Of a stretch of 7,142 bases of DNA, positions 1 through 7,142 are shown one piece after another (the first letter of the stretch is position 1; the number at the start of each line of letters is the position of its first letter). Origin of the DNA: a virus. Taxonomy: Duplodnaviria; Heunggongvirae; Uroviricota; Caudoviricetes. Position numbers and translations under genes: made by a program. The stretch spans positions 1-7,142 of the IMG/VR virus record IMGVR_UViG_2740892219_000009; one strand, given 5' to 3'. A model generated the notes under the pieces. It was given only the letters and a program-made list of their open reading frames with translations, had not been told where the DNA came from and ran no database searches.

Positions 1-11
1 CGGTGGGTTAC
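1..11. repeat. 3' half of a hairpin (cggtgggttac) identical to the 3' arm of the lipoprotein terminator at 3983..4004; cut by the window edge
   Basis: The 11-mer cggtgggttac at 1..11 is identical to 3994..4004, where it forms the loop end and 3' arm of the hairpin gtaacccac-ttcg-gtgggttac. The 5' arm of the copy at the window edge would lie outside the window. Confidence 0.4.
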
Positions 12-47
12 CCCCAAACGAATCGGAAAATCGATACTGGAAAAACT

Positions 48-179
48 CTAACTCGGTGGCCAGTTTTTGTTGACCACTTCATAGCCGTGGTTACGTGTCG
101 GTTGTCGCCCATTATCCGTTCCTTCTGACCACGCCAACATATCGAGGAAGGCTTTACGCTGAGGATTAAGATTTTGCAT
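48..179 (-). pseudogene. N-terminal fragment of a lambda R-type endolysin (lytic transglycosylase), 43 codons then an in-frame TAG
   Basis: Translating the minus strand from ATG at 179..177 gives MQNLNPQRKAFLDMLAWSEGTDNGRQPTRNHGYEVVNKNWPPS*. The first ~35 residues match the conserved N-terminus of lambda R endolysin (NQRKAFLDMLAWSEGTDNGRQ.TRNHGY, including the catalytic-Glu motif WSEGT). Similarity is lost right after NHGYEV and a stop follows at 50..48. The start overlaps the holin 3' end by 14 nt and has a GGGGTG Shine-Dalgarno. Too short for the ORF track. Confidence 0.55.
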
Positions 180-471
180 TTTTCACCCCTGTCAGTCGTT
201 CCCAGAAGTACGTCAGTGCAACCGAACCCATCGCACCACTAATCCCCGCTGTCGCGAGAATCATGTAAATACTGAATCCACTTTCGATGCTGATCAGGCC
301 ACCAATAACACCGGTGAATCCTGATACCACTATTTGAGCCAGAGCATTTATCCAACTCCACGTTGCTTTACTCTGCTTCACATCTATCAGGTAGCGGACC
401 AGACCGCCCCAACCTGCGATGATCAGCAAAACGAGCCAGAACGCTCCGGCAAGGCTCTCTTTTTCGTGCAT
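166..471 (-). CDS. Holin, about 101 aa with three predicted transmembrane segments
   Basis: Track ORF 166..585 (-); the likely real start is the ATG at 471 (MHEKESLAGAFWLVLLIIAGW...). Three hydrophobic stretches (AGAFWLVLLIIAGWGGLV, WINALAQIVVSGFTGVIGGLI, FSIYMILATAGISGAMGSVAL) are followed by a charged C-tail. It sits immediately upstream of and overlaps the R-type endolysin start, downstream of the Q candidate and late promoter. The start has no obvious Shine-Dalgarno, so the exact start is uncertain. Confidence 0.7.
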   Translation of the reverse strand: MHEKESLAGAFWLVLLIIAGWGGLVRYLIDVKQSKATWSWINALAQIVVSGFTGVIGGLISIESGFSIYMILATAGISGAMGSVALTYFWERLTGVKNAKS

Positions 472-782
472 ATGAATAGCCAATGTTTCGCCGCCGACAA
501 AAGGCCGGGACGTTAAATGACAGAAAGTTTGTTCACGAGGTAATTTAACGACAAAGCACGAGGTTAAAACTCCCTCAAAGACCAAAGATAAAAAAGGTCT
601 ACGCTGTTGGTTTCAGAGTTAGTTGCAATATTTCCTGATTATCCTAAGCTGAGTTCTGACTCACCAATTCAGGATGTATTTCAAAGAAGGATGATTAGTT
701 AGATTAATTAAAAAATCTATAAGGGCTCATGAAGAAAGCTAGAAAAAAATCAAATTAACGAACCAAAGCATTGGAAAAACAA

Positions 783-1094
783 ATGAAAGCAATTCAAATA
801 ACTTTAATATTATTACTGTGCAGCACAATCACTGCATGCTTTGCCTCCGATTCTGAAGGAAAATATGTTCAAGGTGACTGCATCACGGCTAACGACTCAA
901 GTTACACTTGGTTTGGTGAGGTGGCAAAAGTAGAAGCCTACACATATATCACTGGTTTTGCCGGTCCAAAGTACATCCTTTACTTCCCTTATTACAAAGC
1001 TGACTCTGTAGTTTTTGAACCTGAAATCGAAAATCACACGATTAAGGTTCCCTCCCGTTACTGTCAAAATATTAATAACGCTTTATCAAGATAA
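783..1094 (+). CDS. Small secreted protein or lipoprotein of unknown function (about 103 aa) in the Q-holin gap; AT-rich moron candidate
   Basis: Track ORF 771..1094 (+) begins at a TTG; the ATG at 783 gives MKAIQITLILLLCSTITACFAS..., a typical signal peptide with a possible lipobox ITA-C or an AXA-type cleavage site. The mature part has two Cys. The gene is visibly AT-rich compared with its neighbours and lies on the strand opposite to late transcription. No family recognised. Confidence 0.55.
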   Translation: MKAIQITLILLLCSTITACFASDSEGKYVQGDCITANDSSYTWFGEVAKVEAYTYITGFAGPKYILYFPYYKADSVVFEPEIENHTIKVPSRYCQNINNALSR

Positions 1095-1155
1095 GAAAGA
1101 ACCAAAACCACGATTATTAGATTTGTGCTCAAATTCACAATTATTGTGTACTATC

Positions 1156-1192
1156 TTCAAAGAATAAGCCCAAGGCTTTAAACCTCGGGCTT
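1156..1192 (-). terminator. Intrinsic terminator candidate on the minus strand (tR'-like), about 50 nt downstream of the candidate late promoter
   Basis: Minus-strand RNA would form a 10-bp stem AAGCCCGAGG / CCUUGGGCUU (one G-U pair) with a 7-nt loop UUUAAAG, followed by AUUCUUUGAA. On the plus strand the same dyad has an A-C mismatch and a weaker U-tail, so it may also act weakly for the plus-strand moron gene. Confidence 0.45.
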
Positions 1193-1247
1193 GAATTTGG
1201 ATTACTACCAGTGCGTACAACATTGGCAAAATATCAGATTTACATGA

Positions 1248-1276
1248 AATATATGCTTTTTAATCCAGTTTTGCAA
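1248..1276 (-). promoter_or_regulatory. Candidate sigma70 late promoter (PR'-like): -35 TTGCAA, 17-bp spacer, -10 TATATT
   Basis: Read on the minus strand: TTGCAA (1276..1271), a 17-nt spacer, then TATATT (1253..1248). Both hexamers are 5/6 to consensus with optimal spacing. The -10 lies 7 nt past the Q-candidate stop codon and the predicted start site (about 1241) is upstream of the hairpin at 1192..1156. This matches the lambdoid arrangement Q - PR'/qut - tR' - lysis genes. Confidence 0.4.
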
Positions 1277-1949
1277 TATCTTGCTGTGAAAATGTCGCCT
1301 TTTGTTTTGAACGTGTTCTCGTTACCAGCAATAAAGCTTCGCTATCAAGCTGTAGAAAAATGCGCTTCATTGCAACCCAGCGTTCAGTGAATGTCTCAGA
1401 CCAGTTTTTTGATGTCACTCCCACCAGTGATGCCAGCTCCTGGTATTCATAGGTCTCACGCCCTGCCAGTTCGCTCTTCACATCCTGTGCTGCCAGCCAG
1501 ATTAACGTCTTCAGGCGATCCAGTGTTTTACCTGCAATTTTTCTGGTACCCAACAGAGCCTTAAACTCGCTCCATGCCCACTGCGTTATGGCAACCTGAT
1601 GCTCCCAGCGAATATTTTCACTGTAACTCCACAGCAACCATGCTTTCTGATGTTCATCGAGAGACAAAATCGCACGCCGCCATGAAGAGGTTGAAAACTC
1701 GACCGAACTGACCAAGGCGACAGATGAACCTTTTGCGTACGACTGTTTACCGGAAATCGGCGGATTATCCAGCGTAATCATCTTGCCAGTTACCTCATCC
1801 AGAATGCGCGGCTTCTTTCGTTTATATGTACCAGTATCAAATTGTGCATGCTCCAGCCAGGCTTCAAGCTGGCCTTTCGTTGCTCCGCTCAAATCAGCGG
1901 TAGCCACCATGAGTTGCTCGCGGACATACTGTAAATATTGGATATTCAT
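1260..1949 (-). CDS. Putative late-gene antiterminator in the Q position (229 aa; not the lambda zinc-finger Q type)
   Basis: Track ORF with ATG at 1949 preceded by AAGGAG at 7-nt spacing; its start overlaps the ylcG-like stop (ATGA). It sits between rusA/ylcG and the late promoter and holin, exactly where lambdoid phages carry Q. The protein contains no cysteine, so it is not a lambda-type Q; assignment is positional. Confidence 0.5.
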   Translation of the reverse strand: MNIQYLQYVREQLMVATADLSGATKGQLEAWLEHAQFDTGTYKRKKPRILDEVTGKMITLDNPPISGKQSYAKGSSVALVSSVEFSTSSWRRAILSLDEHQKAWLLWSYSENIRWEHQVAITQWAWSEFKALLGTRKIAGKTLDRLKTLIWLAAQDVKSELAGRETYEYQELASLVGVTSKNWSETFTERWVAMKRIFLQLDSEALLLVTRTRSKQKATFSQQDIAKLD

Positions 1950-2086
1950 GCGGCAGCTCCTTTCAGCGTTTTGGCGTAATTCTTCAGTATCCGGTAATCG
2001 GTCAAAACAGAACCGGGAAAACTATATAAGCGCAGACACACCCAGCGGCGGCGAAGACGTTCTGCCATATAAGACTCAAACATCAT
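1946..2086 (-). CDS. ylcG: YlcG-like small protein (46 aa) between rusA and the Q candidate
   Basis: Hand-translated from the minus strand: [46 protein letters not shown]. The start overlaps the rusA stop (ATGATG over TGA) and the stop overlaps the Q ATG. Size and position match the small ylcG ORF of DLP12-type prophages as I recall it. Too short for the ORF track. Confidence 0.5.
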
Positions 2087-2445
2087 TCATCTCCCAGTTC
2101 AGTGATGGTCAGCTCCAGCTTCCCACCTTTGGTAACGGGCATCTTCACAACGCGGTAATCAACGACCTGAGCATCATCCAGCCAGAAACCTGCTTTGGTG
2201 AGAGCGTCAAAAGCGGCTTTTTGCAGATTATCCAGGTCACGGCGACGGCGATCCGGCATGTGGCACTCAATGCGGATTTTCACAGGAATAGCCAGGCCGA
2301 TATCCAGCATTGCGTTTTTAATGATTTGGGCGACGTTATCGCGGTATGCCTGCCCCTCTGCGCTGATATGCGTGCGTCCGCGATTATGGCGGTAATAGCG
2401 ATTATTGCTCGGCGGCCAGGGTAGTGTGATGCAGTAAGTATTCAC
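2083..2445 (-). CDS. rusA: RusA Holliday-junction resolvase (120 aa, GTG start)
   Basis: Track ORF 2083..2508 (-) is over-extended upstream; the GTG at 2445 overlaps the ybcO stop (GTGA). The sequence [24 protein letters not shown]...[38 protein letters not shown] is near-identical, from recall, to E. coli RusA, including the acidic catalytic cluster. Confidence 0.9.
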
Positions 2446-2732
2446 GCCTTGATTACCCCTTCTTTCAGCCAGATAACCAGTGTTCTCGCCATACCTTCCA
2501 GCGCACATTCTTTTGCATATCCAGCGTCAACAAAATGCGTGCGACGGTCGATTTCGTCGTGGCAGGCAGAACATGCAATGGTGGCAATCAGGTCTGGCGG
2601 TTTGGTACCGGTGCCGCACAATCCAGTCAGCCGGATATGTGCCAGTACAGACGTTTCAGGGTTGCCATTACATACGCCAGGGATTCTTACCTGGCATTCC
2701 CGACTACGCGCTGCTTTTCTCAAATCAGCCAT
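2442..2732 (-). CDS. ybcO: YbcO-family (DUF1364) putative zinc-binding nuclease (96 aa)
   Basis: The start at the internal ATG ([24 protein letters not shown]...) is preceded by AAGGAGG at 5-nt spacing inside the ninE 3' end. A four-Cys pattern (C-x7-C ... C-x2-C) is present. Track ORF 2442..2771 is an upstream extension. The position between ninE and rusA matches the DLP12 order. Confidence 0.8.
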
Positions 2733-2895
2733 GATTCCTCCTTGCTGCCAGTCGCAACCATTTTTTATCAACCAGGCTGGCGGTATATCCGAGCAGTGTT
2801 GGTATTTCGGAAGGCTTCAGCTCCGGTTTACGCTTACGACGATTTGGTACTCTGTAGATGTGTCCGCTCATGACACGAATAAGTGGTGTAGCCAT
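2725..2895 (-). CDS. ninE: NinE-like protein (56 aa)
   Basis: Hand-translated from the minus strand: [56 protein letters not shown]. The ATG at 2895 overlaps the ninB stop (TAATG) and is preceded by AGGAGG; the stop overlaps the ybcO start (ATGGCTGA). Too short for the ORF track. Confidence 0.7.
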   Translation of the reverse strand: MATPLIRVMSGHIYRVPNRRKRKPELKPSEIPTLLGYTASLVDKKWLRLAARRNHG

Positions 2896-3350
2896 TACGC
2901 CTCCTGCTTGTCGCGCAGCAGCTGGAACTCGCAGCTCTGCGGAATAGTCAGGTGACAGCCAATATTCATCGCCCAGGCTTCAACCTTACACAGGAAGACA
3001 TACATCTCTCCGGTATCAAGATCGGAGGTATGGCGTAACGACTGGATCGTAGTAATTTCACCGGTTACGACATCAACCAGGTCTTTGGTTTCATAACCGA
3101 GGTATGTGTGTTTGAGTGCATCTTTTACCCATACTGCAGTAGCGAACGTTTTACCCCTGCTGATGAGGTACTCACTGATTTCGCTGTACCACATGTGGCT
3201 GAGTGCATTCTGGGAAAGACTGCGTCTCTCGCGCCACGGCTTAAGCACCATGCGAAAGCATTTACCGTCCTCCAGATAAGGCTGGATCTGCTGACCGATA
3301 GCGGTGAAGTTACCGCGATGCAGTTTGATGCCATCTTGTGGGAGGTTCAC
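2895..3350 (-). CDS. ybcN: NinB/Orf-family recombination protein (YbcN-like, 151 aa, GTG start)
   Basis: Track ORF; GTG start at 3350 with a GGAGGT Shine-Dalgarno 5 nt upstream. The motif [23 protein letters not shown] resembles the lambda NinB core (RNRSLDQNRKLW...). It is the first gene of the overlapping nin chain. Confidence 0.8.
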
Positions 3351-3555
3351 GCTTCACCTCCGCAGAGGTCAAACGCTAGATGCAAAGAATTGCAGGTGCA
3401 TTTCTGCATCTGTGAAGGGAGAAGAGAGTTTGGATTGTATGTGCGCATAAACGTCCCCGTTTAGCGCAACCCCACCGCCGGGTGTTCAGGCCGACAGCAG
3501 AAGAATTTTCTCTTATTGATAATTGAAAATCAAAAGAATTTTATCGGTAAATGAT

Positions 3556-3584
3556 GTGATCAGATAAGAACCACATGATAGAAT
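3556..3584 (+). promoter_or_regulatory. Candidate promoter for the lipoprotein gene: extended -10 TGaTAGAAT with a weak -35 GTGATC
   Basis: TAGAAT at 3579..3584 is preceded by TG at 3576..3577; a weak -35 (3/6) lies 17 bp upstream. It sits about 37 nt before the ribosome-binding site AAGGA and the ATG at 3621. Confidence 0.3.
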
Positions 3585-3620
3585 CCGCCGGATTTTTTAG
3601 TGTAACAAAAGGAAAAAATA

Positions 3621-3977
3621 ATGAAAAAAATGTTGGCTGTCGCATTGGCAACCCTTTTGCTGACCGGATGTACCGTTCGTGTAGCAGACCTTACTGTAGC
3701 CAGTACAAAAAACTATAATTTAAATGGTGGTAAATTTTACAAAGGAAAACGCGTAACTGCAGAAGATAGCTATCCTGTTATCATCTTCCCAACAGGTATT
3801 CCCAATGTAAAAACTGCTGCCGATCGTGCAATCGAGCAAGACCGTTGCGCTGTGGGTCTGACTGACGTTGTTGTAACACAACTTAACCAATCATTCCTGG
3901 TTGGTAAAATTGGTTTACGTGTTGAAGGGAATCTCATTATTGACCGCAGCCTTCCTGGATGCGAAAACGCAGGATGA
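3621..3977 (+). CDS. Lipoprotein (118 aa), probably a divergent Bor/Iss-family member
   Basis: The N-terminus MKKMLAVALATLLLTGC has a canonical lipobox (LTGC) and is nearly the same as the lambda Bor signal peptide. The mature region shows patchy Bor-like similarity by eye (KTAADRAI..., VVTQLNQSFLVGKIGL versus Bor VKTETQQTFVNGLLGF). It is divergent from ninB and followed by a strong terminator. Confidence 0.65.
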   Translation: MKKMLAVALATLLLTGCTVRVADLTVASTKNYNLNGGKFYKGKRVTAEDSYPVIIFPTGIPNVKTAADRAIEQDRCAVGLTDVVVTQLNQSFLVGKIGLRVEGNLIIDRSLPGCENAG

Positions 3978-3982
3978 TGATA

Positions 3983-4010
3983 GTAACCCACTTCGGTGGG
4001 TTACTTTTTA
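3983..4010 (+). terminator. Rho-independent terminator of the lipoprotein gene: 9-bp stem, UUCG tetraloop, U-tract
   Basis: gtaacccac (3983..3991), ttcg (3992..3995), gtgggttac (3996..4004), then ttttta, starting 6 nt after the TGA stop. It is unidirectional; the minus-strand side has no U-tract. Confidence 0.75.
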
Positions 4011-4111
4011 TCTAAATCATATGTGCAGCCAACAAACAATATACAATTTACTCTAAATAGCTGTGGCAGCATTCTCTAACTTAATATTTATTCCGAAACA
4101 GAGTTAATTAT

Positions 4112-5638
4112 TTAAAAATAAACTTCCCCATCAATCATATACCTGAGAGTACTTATCGCCTGTTGGGCAGATATTATTTTCATCAAAGGATAGTGTTTAA
4201 AAACAATACCATTCATAAAATAGATATCACATGTTTTGTTATCTGTGTTTATTATAATTTTTTCGAATGTTTTATAAGCAAGTGTACGACATAATTCCCG
4301 CCCATTTTTACTGGTTAAATCAATGTCATGGAAATCACCAAGTGTACTTACACCTTTACTCTTCAAAGTTTTTAATGATATAGAAACCCTTCGCAATTCT
4401 TTATCTAATACTCTAATTTTTTCTGCTATAGCGGTAACTTCAGGTGCAACAGATAATGCAACAATTAAATTATTAATTTTCATCTGAAGTTCAATAACTT
4501 TCAATTCCAGAGTTTCATTAACATCTTTCTTATTTTCAACTGGTTGGATTTTACTACAATTAAAAAGCAATTCATTAACTATATTATAGTCAACCAAATC
4601 TCTTCTTATTGATGGCCTGTTACATCGATGCAATCTTCTCATCGGGCAAACATAATAGCCGTGCAAGCTTCCTGATACTGCATTAACAATCATAGTATTA
4701 CCACAAGCGCCGCACTTCATAACTGTTCGCAGTAGATTTATCAACATAGGATTCTTGCTACTATTGCTAATACCAAAAGGTGCCAGCCGAATTTCCTGCA
4801 CAGAGTAAAACAAATCATCTGATATCACTCTGGGATAATAGTCAGCGATTTCAATTATTCCCTTCCCTCTTGCACGATATGAAGGTACGCATATACCTAT
4901 CAGCGCTTTATTAGCTAATAATTTTTCAATTACAGAAGGCCCCCATGCACTTTCTTTTCCTGAGAAATTCTTTATAGCATGATCATTTAAATACTTAGCA
5001 ATTGCATTCAAAGAGCGTCTTTCCATCCTTAGTTTAAAAATCAGCTCAATCGTTTTCACCCTGTCAGGGTCTAAGACAAACGACGTTCTTTTTTCATCTA
5101 ATGAAAGCCATCTCGGGCAAGATGCCGTCATAATCGTACCTGACTCCATTGCATCTTGTCTTTTTTTCTTCCATGATAATTTAACTCGGCTTGACTTTAT
5201 CTCGCTTTCTTCATTGGCTCTTTGAGCTATAAGTATTGCTTTTATTAATGAATATGGTTCATTTAAAGAATCAATATTATAAGTTGTATTATCGCACAGA
5301 GTTATAACATCAATACCATGATTTAAAATCAGTTTCAGGCGTTCAATCGCCTCACCGACTTTTTCTCTTGAAAGTCTGTCCAGACTTTCAACTAGCAATG
5401 TAGTTCCTGGCAATATACAGCCATGCTCTATGGCATCTAAAAATTCCGAAAAAGCTCCTGACTGTGCATGCTTTCCATTGAATGCGCTTAACCCCAAATC
5501 TTCATACGTTACGGTATCAAGGTAATAATCACTATTTACCTTTAGCCATTCAGTAATAAGCCTTCTCTGACGGTTTAATGAATCACCAGACATCTGGCTT
5601 GGTGATGAAAATCGCATATATGCTATGGCTTTTTTCAT
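4112..5638 (-). CDS. Large serine recombinase (508 aa; resolvase-type catalytic domain, recombinase domain, Cys-rich zinc ribbon)
   Basis: The N-terminus MKKAIAYMRFSSPSQ...GDSLNRQ...LLVESLDRLSR carries the serine-recombinase catalytic motifs. The C-terminal half has the zinc-ribbon pattern KCGACGN...YYVCPMRRLHRC and a coiled-coil-like region. ATG at 5638 has an AGGTG Shine-Dalgarno. The gene is visibly AT-rich (roughly one-third GC by eye, against over half in the nin module). Size and context recall the DLP12 putative recombinase ybcK, but identity is unverified. Confidence 0.85.
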   Translation of the reverse strand: MKKAIAYMRFSSPSQMSGDSLNRQRRLITEWLKVNSDYYLDTVTYEDLGLSAFNGKHAQSGAFSEFLDAIEHGCILPGTTLLVESLDRLSREKVGEAIERLKLILNHGIDVITLCDNTTYNIDSLNEPYSLIKAILIAQRANEESEIKSSRVKLSWKKKRQDAMESGTIMTASCPRWLSLDEKRTSFVLDPDRVKTIELIFKLRMERRSLNAIAKYLNDHAIKNFSGKESAWGPSVIEKLLANKALIGICVPSYRARGKGIIEIADYYPRVISDDLFYSVQEIRLAPFGISNSSKNPMLINLLRTVMKCGACGNTMIVNAVSGSLHGYYVCPMRRLHRCNRPSIRRDLVDYNIVNELLFNCSKIQPVENKKDVNETLELKVIELQMKINNLIVALSVAPEVTAIAEKIRVLDKELRRVSISLKTLKSKGVSTLGDFHDIDLTSKNGRELCRTLAYKTFEKIIINTDNKTCDIYFMNGIVFKHYPLMKIISAQQAISTLRYMIDGEVYF

Positions 5639-5904
5639 GTTGACACCTGCTAATGCATACTTTTATAAACCTTAGCGGCGAGTTATAATTTTGTTTAATT
5701 TTTATTTAAAAAGACAATCGAGATCACATTTTCTTAAATATACAACAAATACCCCATAGCAATTTGCTGCCACATAAATTCACAGACACAAAAGAATATA
5801 GTGTATAAGCAGCCTAAAAACATTTATCAACAGTATAAAAAGAAGTTCGTTATCAGTGAATTGTTCTGTGATTGGGGATTATTGAACTTCTCGATCGAGA
5901 ATAT

Positions 5905-6198
5905 TCAGAACCCAGCGGGGGAACTCTTTGGCCACAGGAGTTCGTGCGAACATGACGATCCGTTGGTCTCCCCGAAGGCTAAATACTCGAGACGCCTGCA
6001 TTCCACGAGGGTGGTCACTTTGCCCCCTCCTATCATCATGTCTGTAAATTCATCTGAGTGACGAGAGTAAATGCGCTTAGCTGCGTTATCGTCCGCATAT
6101 TCCATTGCTAAACCAACTTCAGTGGCAGTAAGCCAAATTCTGTTGTTGTGGCAAATCGGGGTAAACGTCGTTTTGTGGAATGCTAATTGAGTAGTCAT
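5905..6198 (-). CDS. BRO-N / antirepressor-N-like domain protein (97 aa), possibly a truncated N-terminal fragment
   Basis: ATG at 6198 has a GAGGTG Shine-Dalgarno at 5-nt spacing. The motif F.K..FTPICHNNRIWLTATEVGLAMEYADD...SDEF resembles the BRO-N / P22 Ant N-terminal signature (F.F...IR...DGEPWF.A.DVA..LGY...D.DEK). The ORF ends where composition switches to AT-rich, and there is no C-terminal domain. Confidence 0.45.
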   Translation of the reverse strand: MTTQLAFHKTTFTPICHNNRIWLTATEVGLAMEYADDNAAKRIYSRHSDEFTDMMIGGGKVTTLVECRRLEYLAFGETNGSSCSHELLWPKSSPAGF

Positions 6199-6222
6199 AG
6201 TATCACCTCATCAGGTTAACAA

Positions 6223-6255
6223 TCACCACCAACGACGCCAATCGACAGGTGGTGA
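6223..6255. other. Inverted repeat with 8-bp stem (tcaccacc ... ggtggtga) and 17-nt spacer, upstream of the BRO-N-like gene
   Basis: Arms at 6223..6230 and 6248..6255, inside a GC-rich ORF-free stretch about 25 nt upstream of the BRO-N start. Could be an operator or an RNA hairpin. Confidence 0.3.
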
Positions 6256-6561
6256 ACTGTGCAAGGTTGGCGTAACCGGCTACACAAACCCGGCGCTTCC
6301 GAAGAAGCCCTCACACAGCCCACCATAATTTGGGCGTAGCCGCGCTTAGCGCATAAAAAAACTGCTTAACGCGGTATGCGTTGAGTAGTGTTCCGGGACG
6401 CCAATCCCGTGTGCCGATTTTGCGGCAACACAAAGAATTAGCCCCAGTGAATGGTGGCGGTCAACCGCAGTCATTCATTCTCATAATGTGATCACCATCA
6501 CTCAACAGGTTCCAGAAACCGCTCTATCATACTGACTTTAAACAGTTTTTAGGTGTTAAAT

Positions 6562-6948
6562 ATGTGGTTTATAGTATTAATAGCTATCCTGATTATTGCC
6601 GCTTTCGTTTTTAAAAGCTCCAAATCCAAAAATCCACCTTCGCAACCAGTTCGTACTACTAAAAAAATAAAGGCACCCACACATAAAAAAACGCAAACTA
6701 ACTATAGTTATAGTACCGATATCATTGAGTTAGATATAACTTATCAGGATGCGAAGGGCGAAATCACTAATCGCCATATATCTATCATAAAATACGACCC
6801 TTCAAAGAAAAAAATATATGCACGGTGCCATTTAAGAAAAAGCATGCGAAGTTTCTATATTGATAGAATATTAACCGCAATAGATATTGAAACTGGCGAA
6901 ATTCTTTCAGATCTCGACGGGTATATATCAGAAAGAATAAACTATTAA
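6562..6948 (+). CDS. Small membrane-anchored protein (128 aa) with a WYL-like C-terminal domain
   Basis: Track ORF 6553..6948 starts at a GTG; the ATG at 6562 is preceded by AGGTG at 6-nt spacing. The N-terminus WFIVLIAILIIAAFVF is a single transmembrane helix, followed by a Lys/Ser/Thr-rich linker and a beta-rich domain containing KIYARCHLRKSMRSFYIDRI, which resembles the WYL-domain core (WYL.A.C......R.FR.DRI). The gene is AT-rich. Confidence 0.6.
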   Translation: MWFIVLIAILIIAAFVFKSSKSKNPPSQPVRTTKKIKAPTHKKTQTNYSYSTDIIELDITYQDAKGEITNRHISIIKYDPSKKKIYARCHLRKSMRSFYIDRILTAIDIETGEILSDLDGYISERINY

Positions 6949-7142
6949 CATTCAATATATTTACCCCAAGCATTATGTGCCGGGGCATGTAATTATATGA
7001 CCATTGATAATTCCATTTTGTAAATATTTAGGTTGTCATCAATGATAGTGCGTTTACTTTTCCATACACAGCCAACACTCGTTTCATCGCGACACTCTGG
7101 CGACACTCCTTAAAAATCAGGTTCGTGCTCACCTTTCCTTCC

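Follow-up and report, generated by a model that had tools for sequence, protein, structure and literature searches.

A phage 82-type Q antiterminator gene and its predicted qut site in a lambdoid, probably defective prophage

Gene content of the window

The window, which is the whole 7,142-nt stretch of tailed-phage DNA analyzed here (positions 1 to 7,142 of IMG/VR record IMGVR_UViG_2740892219_000009), carries a gene Q on the minus strand together with upstream genes of the nin region and downstream lysis genes (Table 1). The Q open reading frame (ORF) is intact, starts with ATG, and encodes 229 amino acids followed by a stop codon. The product contains 0 cysteine, 3 histidine, and 10 tryptophan residues, and this count confirms the cysteine-free 229-residue protein described in an earlier reading made without database searches (here called the sequence-only reading). 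The stop codon of the ylcG-like ORF shares 4 nt (ATGA) with the Q start, an overlap as expected for a typical translationally coupled phage gene.

Table 1. Predicted genes and regulatory elements of the window, in order of position
Feature	Position	Strand	Basis
Truncated lambda-R-like endolysin, 43 codons	48..179	minus	Alignment with a 158-aa E. coli GH24 lysozyme
Holin, first late gene downstream	166..471	minus	PF16083, E = 2.4e-21; PHROG 785 (holin), E = 1.1e-39
Opposite-strand ORF, 107 aa, signal peptide and possible lipobox (…STITAC)	771..1094	plus	
Strong intrinsic terminator tR', hairpin 1192..1166 and U-rich tail	1156..1192	minus	Terminator scan, RNA fold
T (U in RNA) at +25 pause site	1217	minus	Matches 82pR' description
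Initial transcribed region, +1..+25, AAA start	1217..1241	minus	Sequence, PMC5001585 landmarks
GCC at +15-17	1227..1225	minus	Matches 82pR' description
Extended -10-like sigma70 pause element TGATATTTT (TG-A-TATTTT), +6..+14	1236..1228	minus	Matches 82pR' description
PR' -10 hexamer TATATT	1248..1253	minus	Promoter scan; conserved in phage alignment
17-bp PR' spacer AACTGGATTAAAAAGCA, expected location of the Q82-binding element (QBE)	1254..1270	minus	PMC4914094 placement
PR' -35 hexamer TTGCAA, within the last Q codons	1271..1276	minus	Promoter scan; same in phage 82 record
Q gene, Q82 family, late-gene transcription antiterminator, 229 aa	1260..1949	minus	ORF, PF06323, PHROG 304
Shine-Dalgarno sequence AAGGAG of Q, 7 nt upstream of the start	1962..1957	minus	Sequence read directly
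ylcG-like small gene, directly upstream of Q	1946..2086	minus	NCBIfam NF033498 YlcG, E = 6.3e-19
rusA	2083..2508	minus	NCBIfam, 270 bits
ybcO	2442..2771	minus	Pfam search
ninE	2725..2895	minus	
NinB/YbcN-like gene	2895..3350	minus	PHROG 72
Predicted lipoprotein, 118 aa, lipobox LLTGC, LPAM_1	3621..3977	plus	PHROG 7441, E = 1e-67, end to end
Large serine recombinase, 508 aa, YbcK-like; Resolvase, Recombinase, and Zn_ribbon_recom domains	4112..5638	minus	
Antirepressor remnant, two overlapping ORFs in different frames (5905..6198; 5879..6001)	5879..6198	minus	
C4 antisense RNA	6245..6330	minus	Rfam RF01695, 75 bits, gathering-level
isrK Hfq-binding sRNA	6355..6427	minus	Rfam RF01394, 52.7 bits, cut-off 50
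131-aa ORF, N-terminal hydrophobic segment	6553..6948	plus	Part of PHROG 6785 (unknown function)

The order of the genes leading to Q, namely, ninB/ybcN-like, ninE, ybcO, rusA, ylcG, and Q, equals that of orf151, orf56 (ninE-like), orf96 (ybcO), rus, orf45 (ylcG), and Q in the phage 82 record X92588.1, which bears out the earlier placement of this gene in the Q slot by synteny. The listed RusA (141 amino acids) and YbcO (109 amino acids) products are longer than expected from the family models and from the proteins annotated in E. coli (120 and 96 amino acids, respectively). Their true starts are probably internal, in RusA at a GTG, and would give the usual 4-nt overlaps.

The remaining part of the window contains several features beyond the nin genes. 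The C4 and isrK RNA matches are arranged in tandem, share the strand of Q, and are immediately upstream of the antirepressor remnant. Each of the two ORFs in this remnant aligns with the N-terminal third of anti-repressor (Ant) families of phages (PHROG 245, 5060, and 2127), and the region resembles an ant gene that has been frameshifted and truncated; the recombinase gene comes next. The segment of the early/nin region that holds the recombinase gene is markedly AT-rich (GC content of about 29 to 40%). The lipoprotein ORF lies between the recombinase and nin genes and is read in the opposite direction, and PHROG 7441, which it matches, is of unknown function. The 131-aa ORF also shows a match to the WYL domain that fails to reach the cut-off for acceptance (E = 0.007).

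Family assignment, cysteine content, and predicted structure of Q

Three Q families have been described, Q21 (PF06530), Q-lambda (PF03589), and Q82 (PF06323), which share their function and genome position without obvious sequence similarity (PMC9388147). In the Pfam search, Q matches PF06323 (Phage_antiter_Q) with an E value of 2.6e-96 and a score of 322 bits, compared with a cut-off of 25, and the alignment places Q residues 4 to 220 on profile positions 1 to 217 of 220. In addition, Q matches PHROG 304, "anti-termination protein Q-like," with an E value of 1.1e-107. No other family, including PF03589 and PF06530, was found in the Pfam search at an E value of ≤0.1. The profile comparison with the three Q families that was proposed with the sequence-only reading therefore returns Q82 only, which is an antiterminator family. 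Of the two affiliations that reading had offered, the 82-like one stands and the 21-like one falls, and its statement that the protein is not of the zinc-binding lambda-Q type holds.

Among phage records, the best tblastn match of the Q protein is X92588.1, described as "phage 82 Q antiterminator" and encoding the type member of PF06323, with 92.1% amino acid identity over 229 of 229 residues and no gaps, and the next matches are those of Escherichia phage PhiR47_2 (90.0%) and phage 434 (88.6%), which are Q82-type proteins of complete phages. The DNA of the two genes is 93.6% identical, with 24 synonymous and 18 nonsynonymous codon differences, a pattern that is compatible with purifying selection. 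None of the 18 amino acid substitutions in the present Q falls at a family-invariant or near-invariant column. A search of a large protein database yielded 2,743 homologs, the top one (96% identical) being from E. coli, and PF06323 is present in all of the 120 best listed. More distantly, AntQ of the Salmonella prophage Gifsy-1, a member of the same family, aligns with 95% of the present Q at 71% identity. In contrast, lambda Q (PF03589) shows no detectable sequence similarity to the present Q, and neither do Pseudomonas aeruginosa AlpA and phage 21 Q (PF06530).

At a typical cysteine frequency of 1.15%, about 7% of 229-residue proteins would be expected to contain no cysteine, so the lack of this residue in Q is not statistically striking. 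Phage 82 Q, likewise of 229 residues, contains 0 cysteines, and 74 of the 120 closest among the 2,743 homologs are also cysteine free, with distant full-length representatives of the family (17 to 64% identity) containing 0 to 8. In an alignment of 66 diverse family members, no column contains cysteine in more than 32 sequences, and the three columns richest in cysteine alternate with Ala/Ser, with Thr/Val/Ala, and with Leu/Phe/Val, a pattern more suggestive of buried residues than of metal ligands. The idea of a cryptic but conserved metal site in Q82-type proteins was therefore rejected. The zinc ribbon of lambda-Q forms an "arm" that contacts DNA and the zinc-binding domain of RNA polymerase (PMC9388147), and this cysteine-based arm belongs to lambda-Q only. 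A cysteine-free protein is thus normal for the Q82 family, and the puzzle of a Q without cysteine is resolved because the zinc ribbon is used by the lambda-Q family only.

Neither the Q sequence nor the 66-member family profile gave a significant match when searched against all PDB chains, and the profile search retrieved no lambda-Q or Q21 chain even at an E value of ≤10. Its sole match, a TetR helix-turn-helix aligned with residues 157 to 201 or so of Q, is nonsignificant (E = 1.4). To our knowledge, Q82 is the only Q family without an experimental structure. An AlphaFold model of Q built from the 66-sequence alignment has a pLDDT of 88.9 and a pTM of 0.76, with a well-defined helical domain at residues 81 to 227 and a less certain part at about residues 20 to 80. 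In the model, residues 168 to 190 or so look like a helix-turn-helix, with helices at 168 to 175 and from 179 onward and G-V-T between them. The structure prediction envisaged with the sequence-only reading thus gave a confident model, and its three top Foldseek matches are AlpA and lambda-Q chains, at an E value of about 0.14 that is not significant alone. This outcome agrees with a remark by Wen et al. (PMC9371919) that lambda-Q and 82Q, as modeled by AlphaFold, are similar to AlpA, save for a zinc finger inserted in lambda-Q. A shared ancestry of the Q82 helical body with lambda-Q and Pseudomonas AlpA, with the lambda-Q zinc ribbon as an insertion, is possible at a little under even odds. 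If it is true, the "three unrelated Q families" would in part be one divergent superfamily.

The late promoter region downstream of Q

The late promoter of phage 82, 82pR', has been described in detail. Its transcript begins with AAA, its -10-like pause element is nearer to the consensus than that of lambda and has an extended -10, a GCC "discriminator" is found at +15-17, sigma70 is engaged at a transcript length of 21, and the pause occurs at +25, where the natural 3' base is U, compared with +16 in lambda (PMC5001585). The QBE, which is needed by 82Q, lies between the -35 and -10 hexamers (PMC4914094). In the window, +1 was set at the first A of AAA (position 1241), and the transcript then begins AAAUCUGAUAUUUUGCCAAUGUUGU. 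With this numbering, the region downstream of Q carries every published 82pR' landmark at the expected offset and is a predicted qut site. The comparison is based on the published landmarks and on phages 434, PhiR47_2, and others, since X92588.1 ends at the Q stop codon; the -35 hexamer and the first 11 bases of the spacer are identical to those of that record.

In the phage alignment, the -35 hexamer is invariant in six phages and the 17-bp spacer is nearly invariant across six Q82-type phages. Hardly any base varies in the whole block from -35 to about +25 among six phages whose Q proteins are 65 to 92% identical to the present Q (65 to 90% for the five aligned with the window). The similarity breaks off just beyond the pause site, where each phage continues with a hairpin terminator of its own, that of phage 434 differing from the present tR'. 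The window and PhiR47_2 share 94% identity over the stretch that begins at the 3' end of Q and includes the terminator hairpin, and the hairpin itself is identical. The tR' stem has 12 bp (6 G-C pairs) and a 3-nt loop and is followed by UUAUUCUUU, ending about 85 nt from +1. The fold of the leader RNA has a z score of -3.26 and beats all 200 shuffles; the terminator that had been called here from the sequence is thereby confirmed.

The same region contains a second potential site. The sequence TTGCAATATCTTGC on the plus strand (1271..1284) fits the CII-box consensus TTGYN6TTGY, as a consensus match only. This candidate shares bases with the PR' -35 hexamer on the strand opposite to Q, and in the phage 434 record the corresponding position is labeled as a CII-binding site, together with a paQ -35.

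By analogy with the 82 system, sigma70-RNA polymerase would start at PR', a promoter that overlaps the 3' end of Q. Region 2 of sigma70 would then rebind the extended -10-like element, and the complex would pause at +25. Q bound to the QBE in the spacer would contact the beta flap-tip and load onto the paused complex, aided by NusA. Traveling with the polymerase, Q would cause tR' to be ignored, so that the lysis genes could be read. Terminator read-through, binding to the flap-tip of the RNA polymerase beta subunit, and stimulation by NusA have been reported for 82Q (PMC4914094), and we infer these properties for the present Q from its 92% identity to 82Q.

State of the prophage and use of Q

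The operon that Q would control differs from that of a complete phage. Both holin matches begin at about residue 39 of the listed ORF, and the E. coli homolog has 101 amino acids, which is likely also the length given by the true holin start. Only the first 36 or so residues of the endolysin fragment are lysozyme-like. Similarity of the window to E. coli prophages begins at position 76 to 112, leaving the first 75 to 110 nt or so unmatched, and the cut endolysin and the unmatched left end are likely a prophage deletion or boundary. The distance from Q to holin is about 790 nt, compared with about 310 nt in PhiR47_2. The part from tR' to holin (about 680 nt) includes foreign DNA of low GC content (35 to 38% at 586..1165) with the opposite-strand ORF. 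A blastn search with 586..1165 found no match in 5,426 complete E. coli genomes, and the product of the ORF has no match in Pfam, NCBIfam, and PHROG; from its sequence, this stretch is a moron-like insert. Read-through dependent on Q, if any, would cross the insert antisense to the ORF. Compared with DLP12-like prophage regions of E. coli, the whole window can be matched over 64% of its length at an identity of only 92 to 93%, so the host is probably a relative and not one of the completely sequenced E. coli. An exact-match scan of representative genome contigs with 41 nt of the insert gave no match. Taken as sequence, the element is probably a defective prophage in which Q and the qut site are intact and the controlled operon has decayed. 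Q here may no longer serve the lytic program, because the endolysin is cut to 43 codons and an insertion-bearing stretch of about 680 nt precedes the holin gene.

A comparison can also be made with the Gifsy-1 prophage, in which an isrK-orf45-anrP module controls the Q82-family antiterminator AntQ (PMC4825925), for which global toxicity has been reported. As in that module, an isrK-like sRNA and an antirepressor remnant are present here. Unlike in Gifsy-1, where isrK is found just downstream of antQ, it lies about 4.4 kb upstream of Q on the same strand in the window, and the antirepressor gene is frameshifted.

The gene at 1260..1949 is most likely a Q82-family late-gene antiterminator, essentially a phage 82 Q allele, in a lambdoid, DLP12-like, probably defective prophage, with a probability of about 95%. 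The sequence-only reading had also allowed that an unrelated protein merely sits at the Q position. The lack of cysteine and of any sequence match to solved structures is all that speaks for this, and the full-length identity to the biochemically characterized phage 82 Q, the PF06323 match, and the predicted cognate 82-type qut site directly downstream contradict it, so the chance that it applies is negligible and it was rejected. Membership in the Q21 family, or descent from lambda-Q with loss of cysteines, was likewise rejected and is extremely improbable, given the lack of PF03589 and PF06530 matches and of such PDB chains at the thresholds given above. Q has no cysteine from which a zinc ribbon could be formed, and the qut layout, with its pause at +25 and its extended -10-like element, is that of phage 82 rather than that of lambda.

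A different alternative accepts the assignment to Q82 by descent and holds that Q is now an idle remnant, either unexpressed or with nothing useful to antiterminate. Its setting gives this some weight: the present gene, unlike phage 82 Q, sits on a chromosome within a prophage remnant whose lysis cassette is truncated, the similarity to E. coli prophages stops near the left end, the antirepressor gene further upstream is frameshifted, and the region resembles a DLP12-type remnant with a ybcK-like recombinase. Against this, the Q ORF is of full length, has a good ribosome-binding site, and is coupled to ylcG, neither the qut site nor the terminator is damaged, both being near-identical to those of the complete phage PhiR47_2, and the substitutions relative to phage 82 lean synonymous. 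An idle Q is thus rather unlikely. This alternative concerns present-day use and not identity, and it is compatible with the assignment of the gene as a Q82-family antiterminator.

The present Q belongs to a known family, is itself known, and has no unusual feature, and the value of its identification is a correct annotation and little beyond. Whether 82Q forms a closed nozzle is a question that has been posed for the family (PMC9388147), to which this allele adds nothing special. The 794-nt cassette of Q, qut site, and terminator, counted as present at a coverage of at least 80%, was found in 1,152 of 5,426 complete E. coli genomes, where the highest identity was 96.8%. The window thus carries the standard phage 82-type Q/qut/tR' switch that about one in five complete E. 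coli genomes contains.
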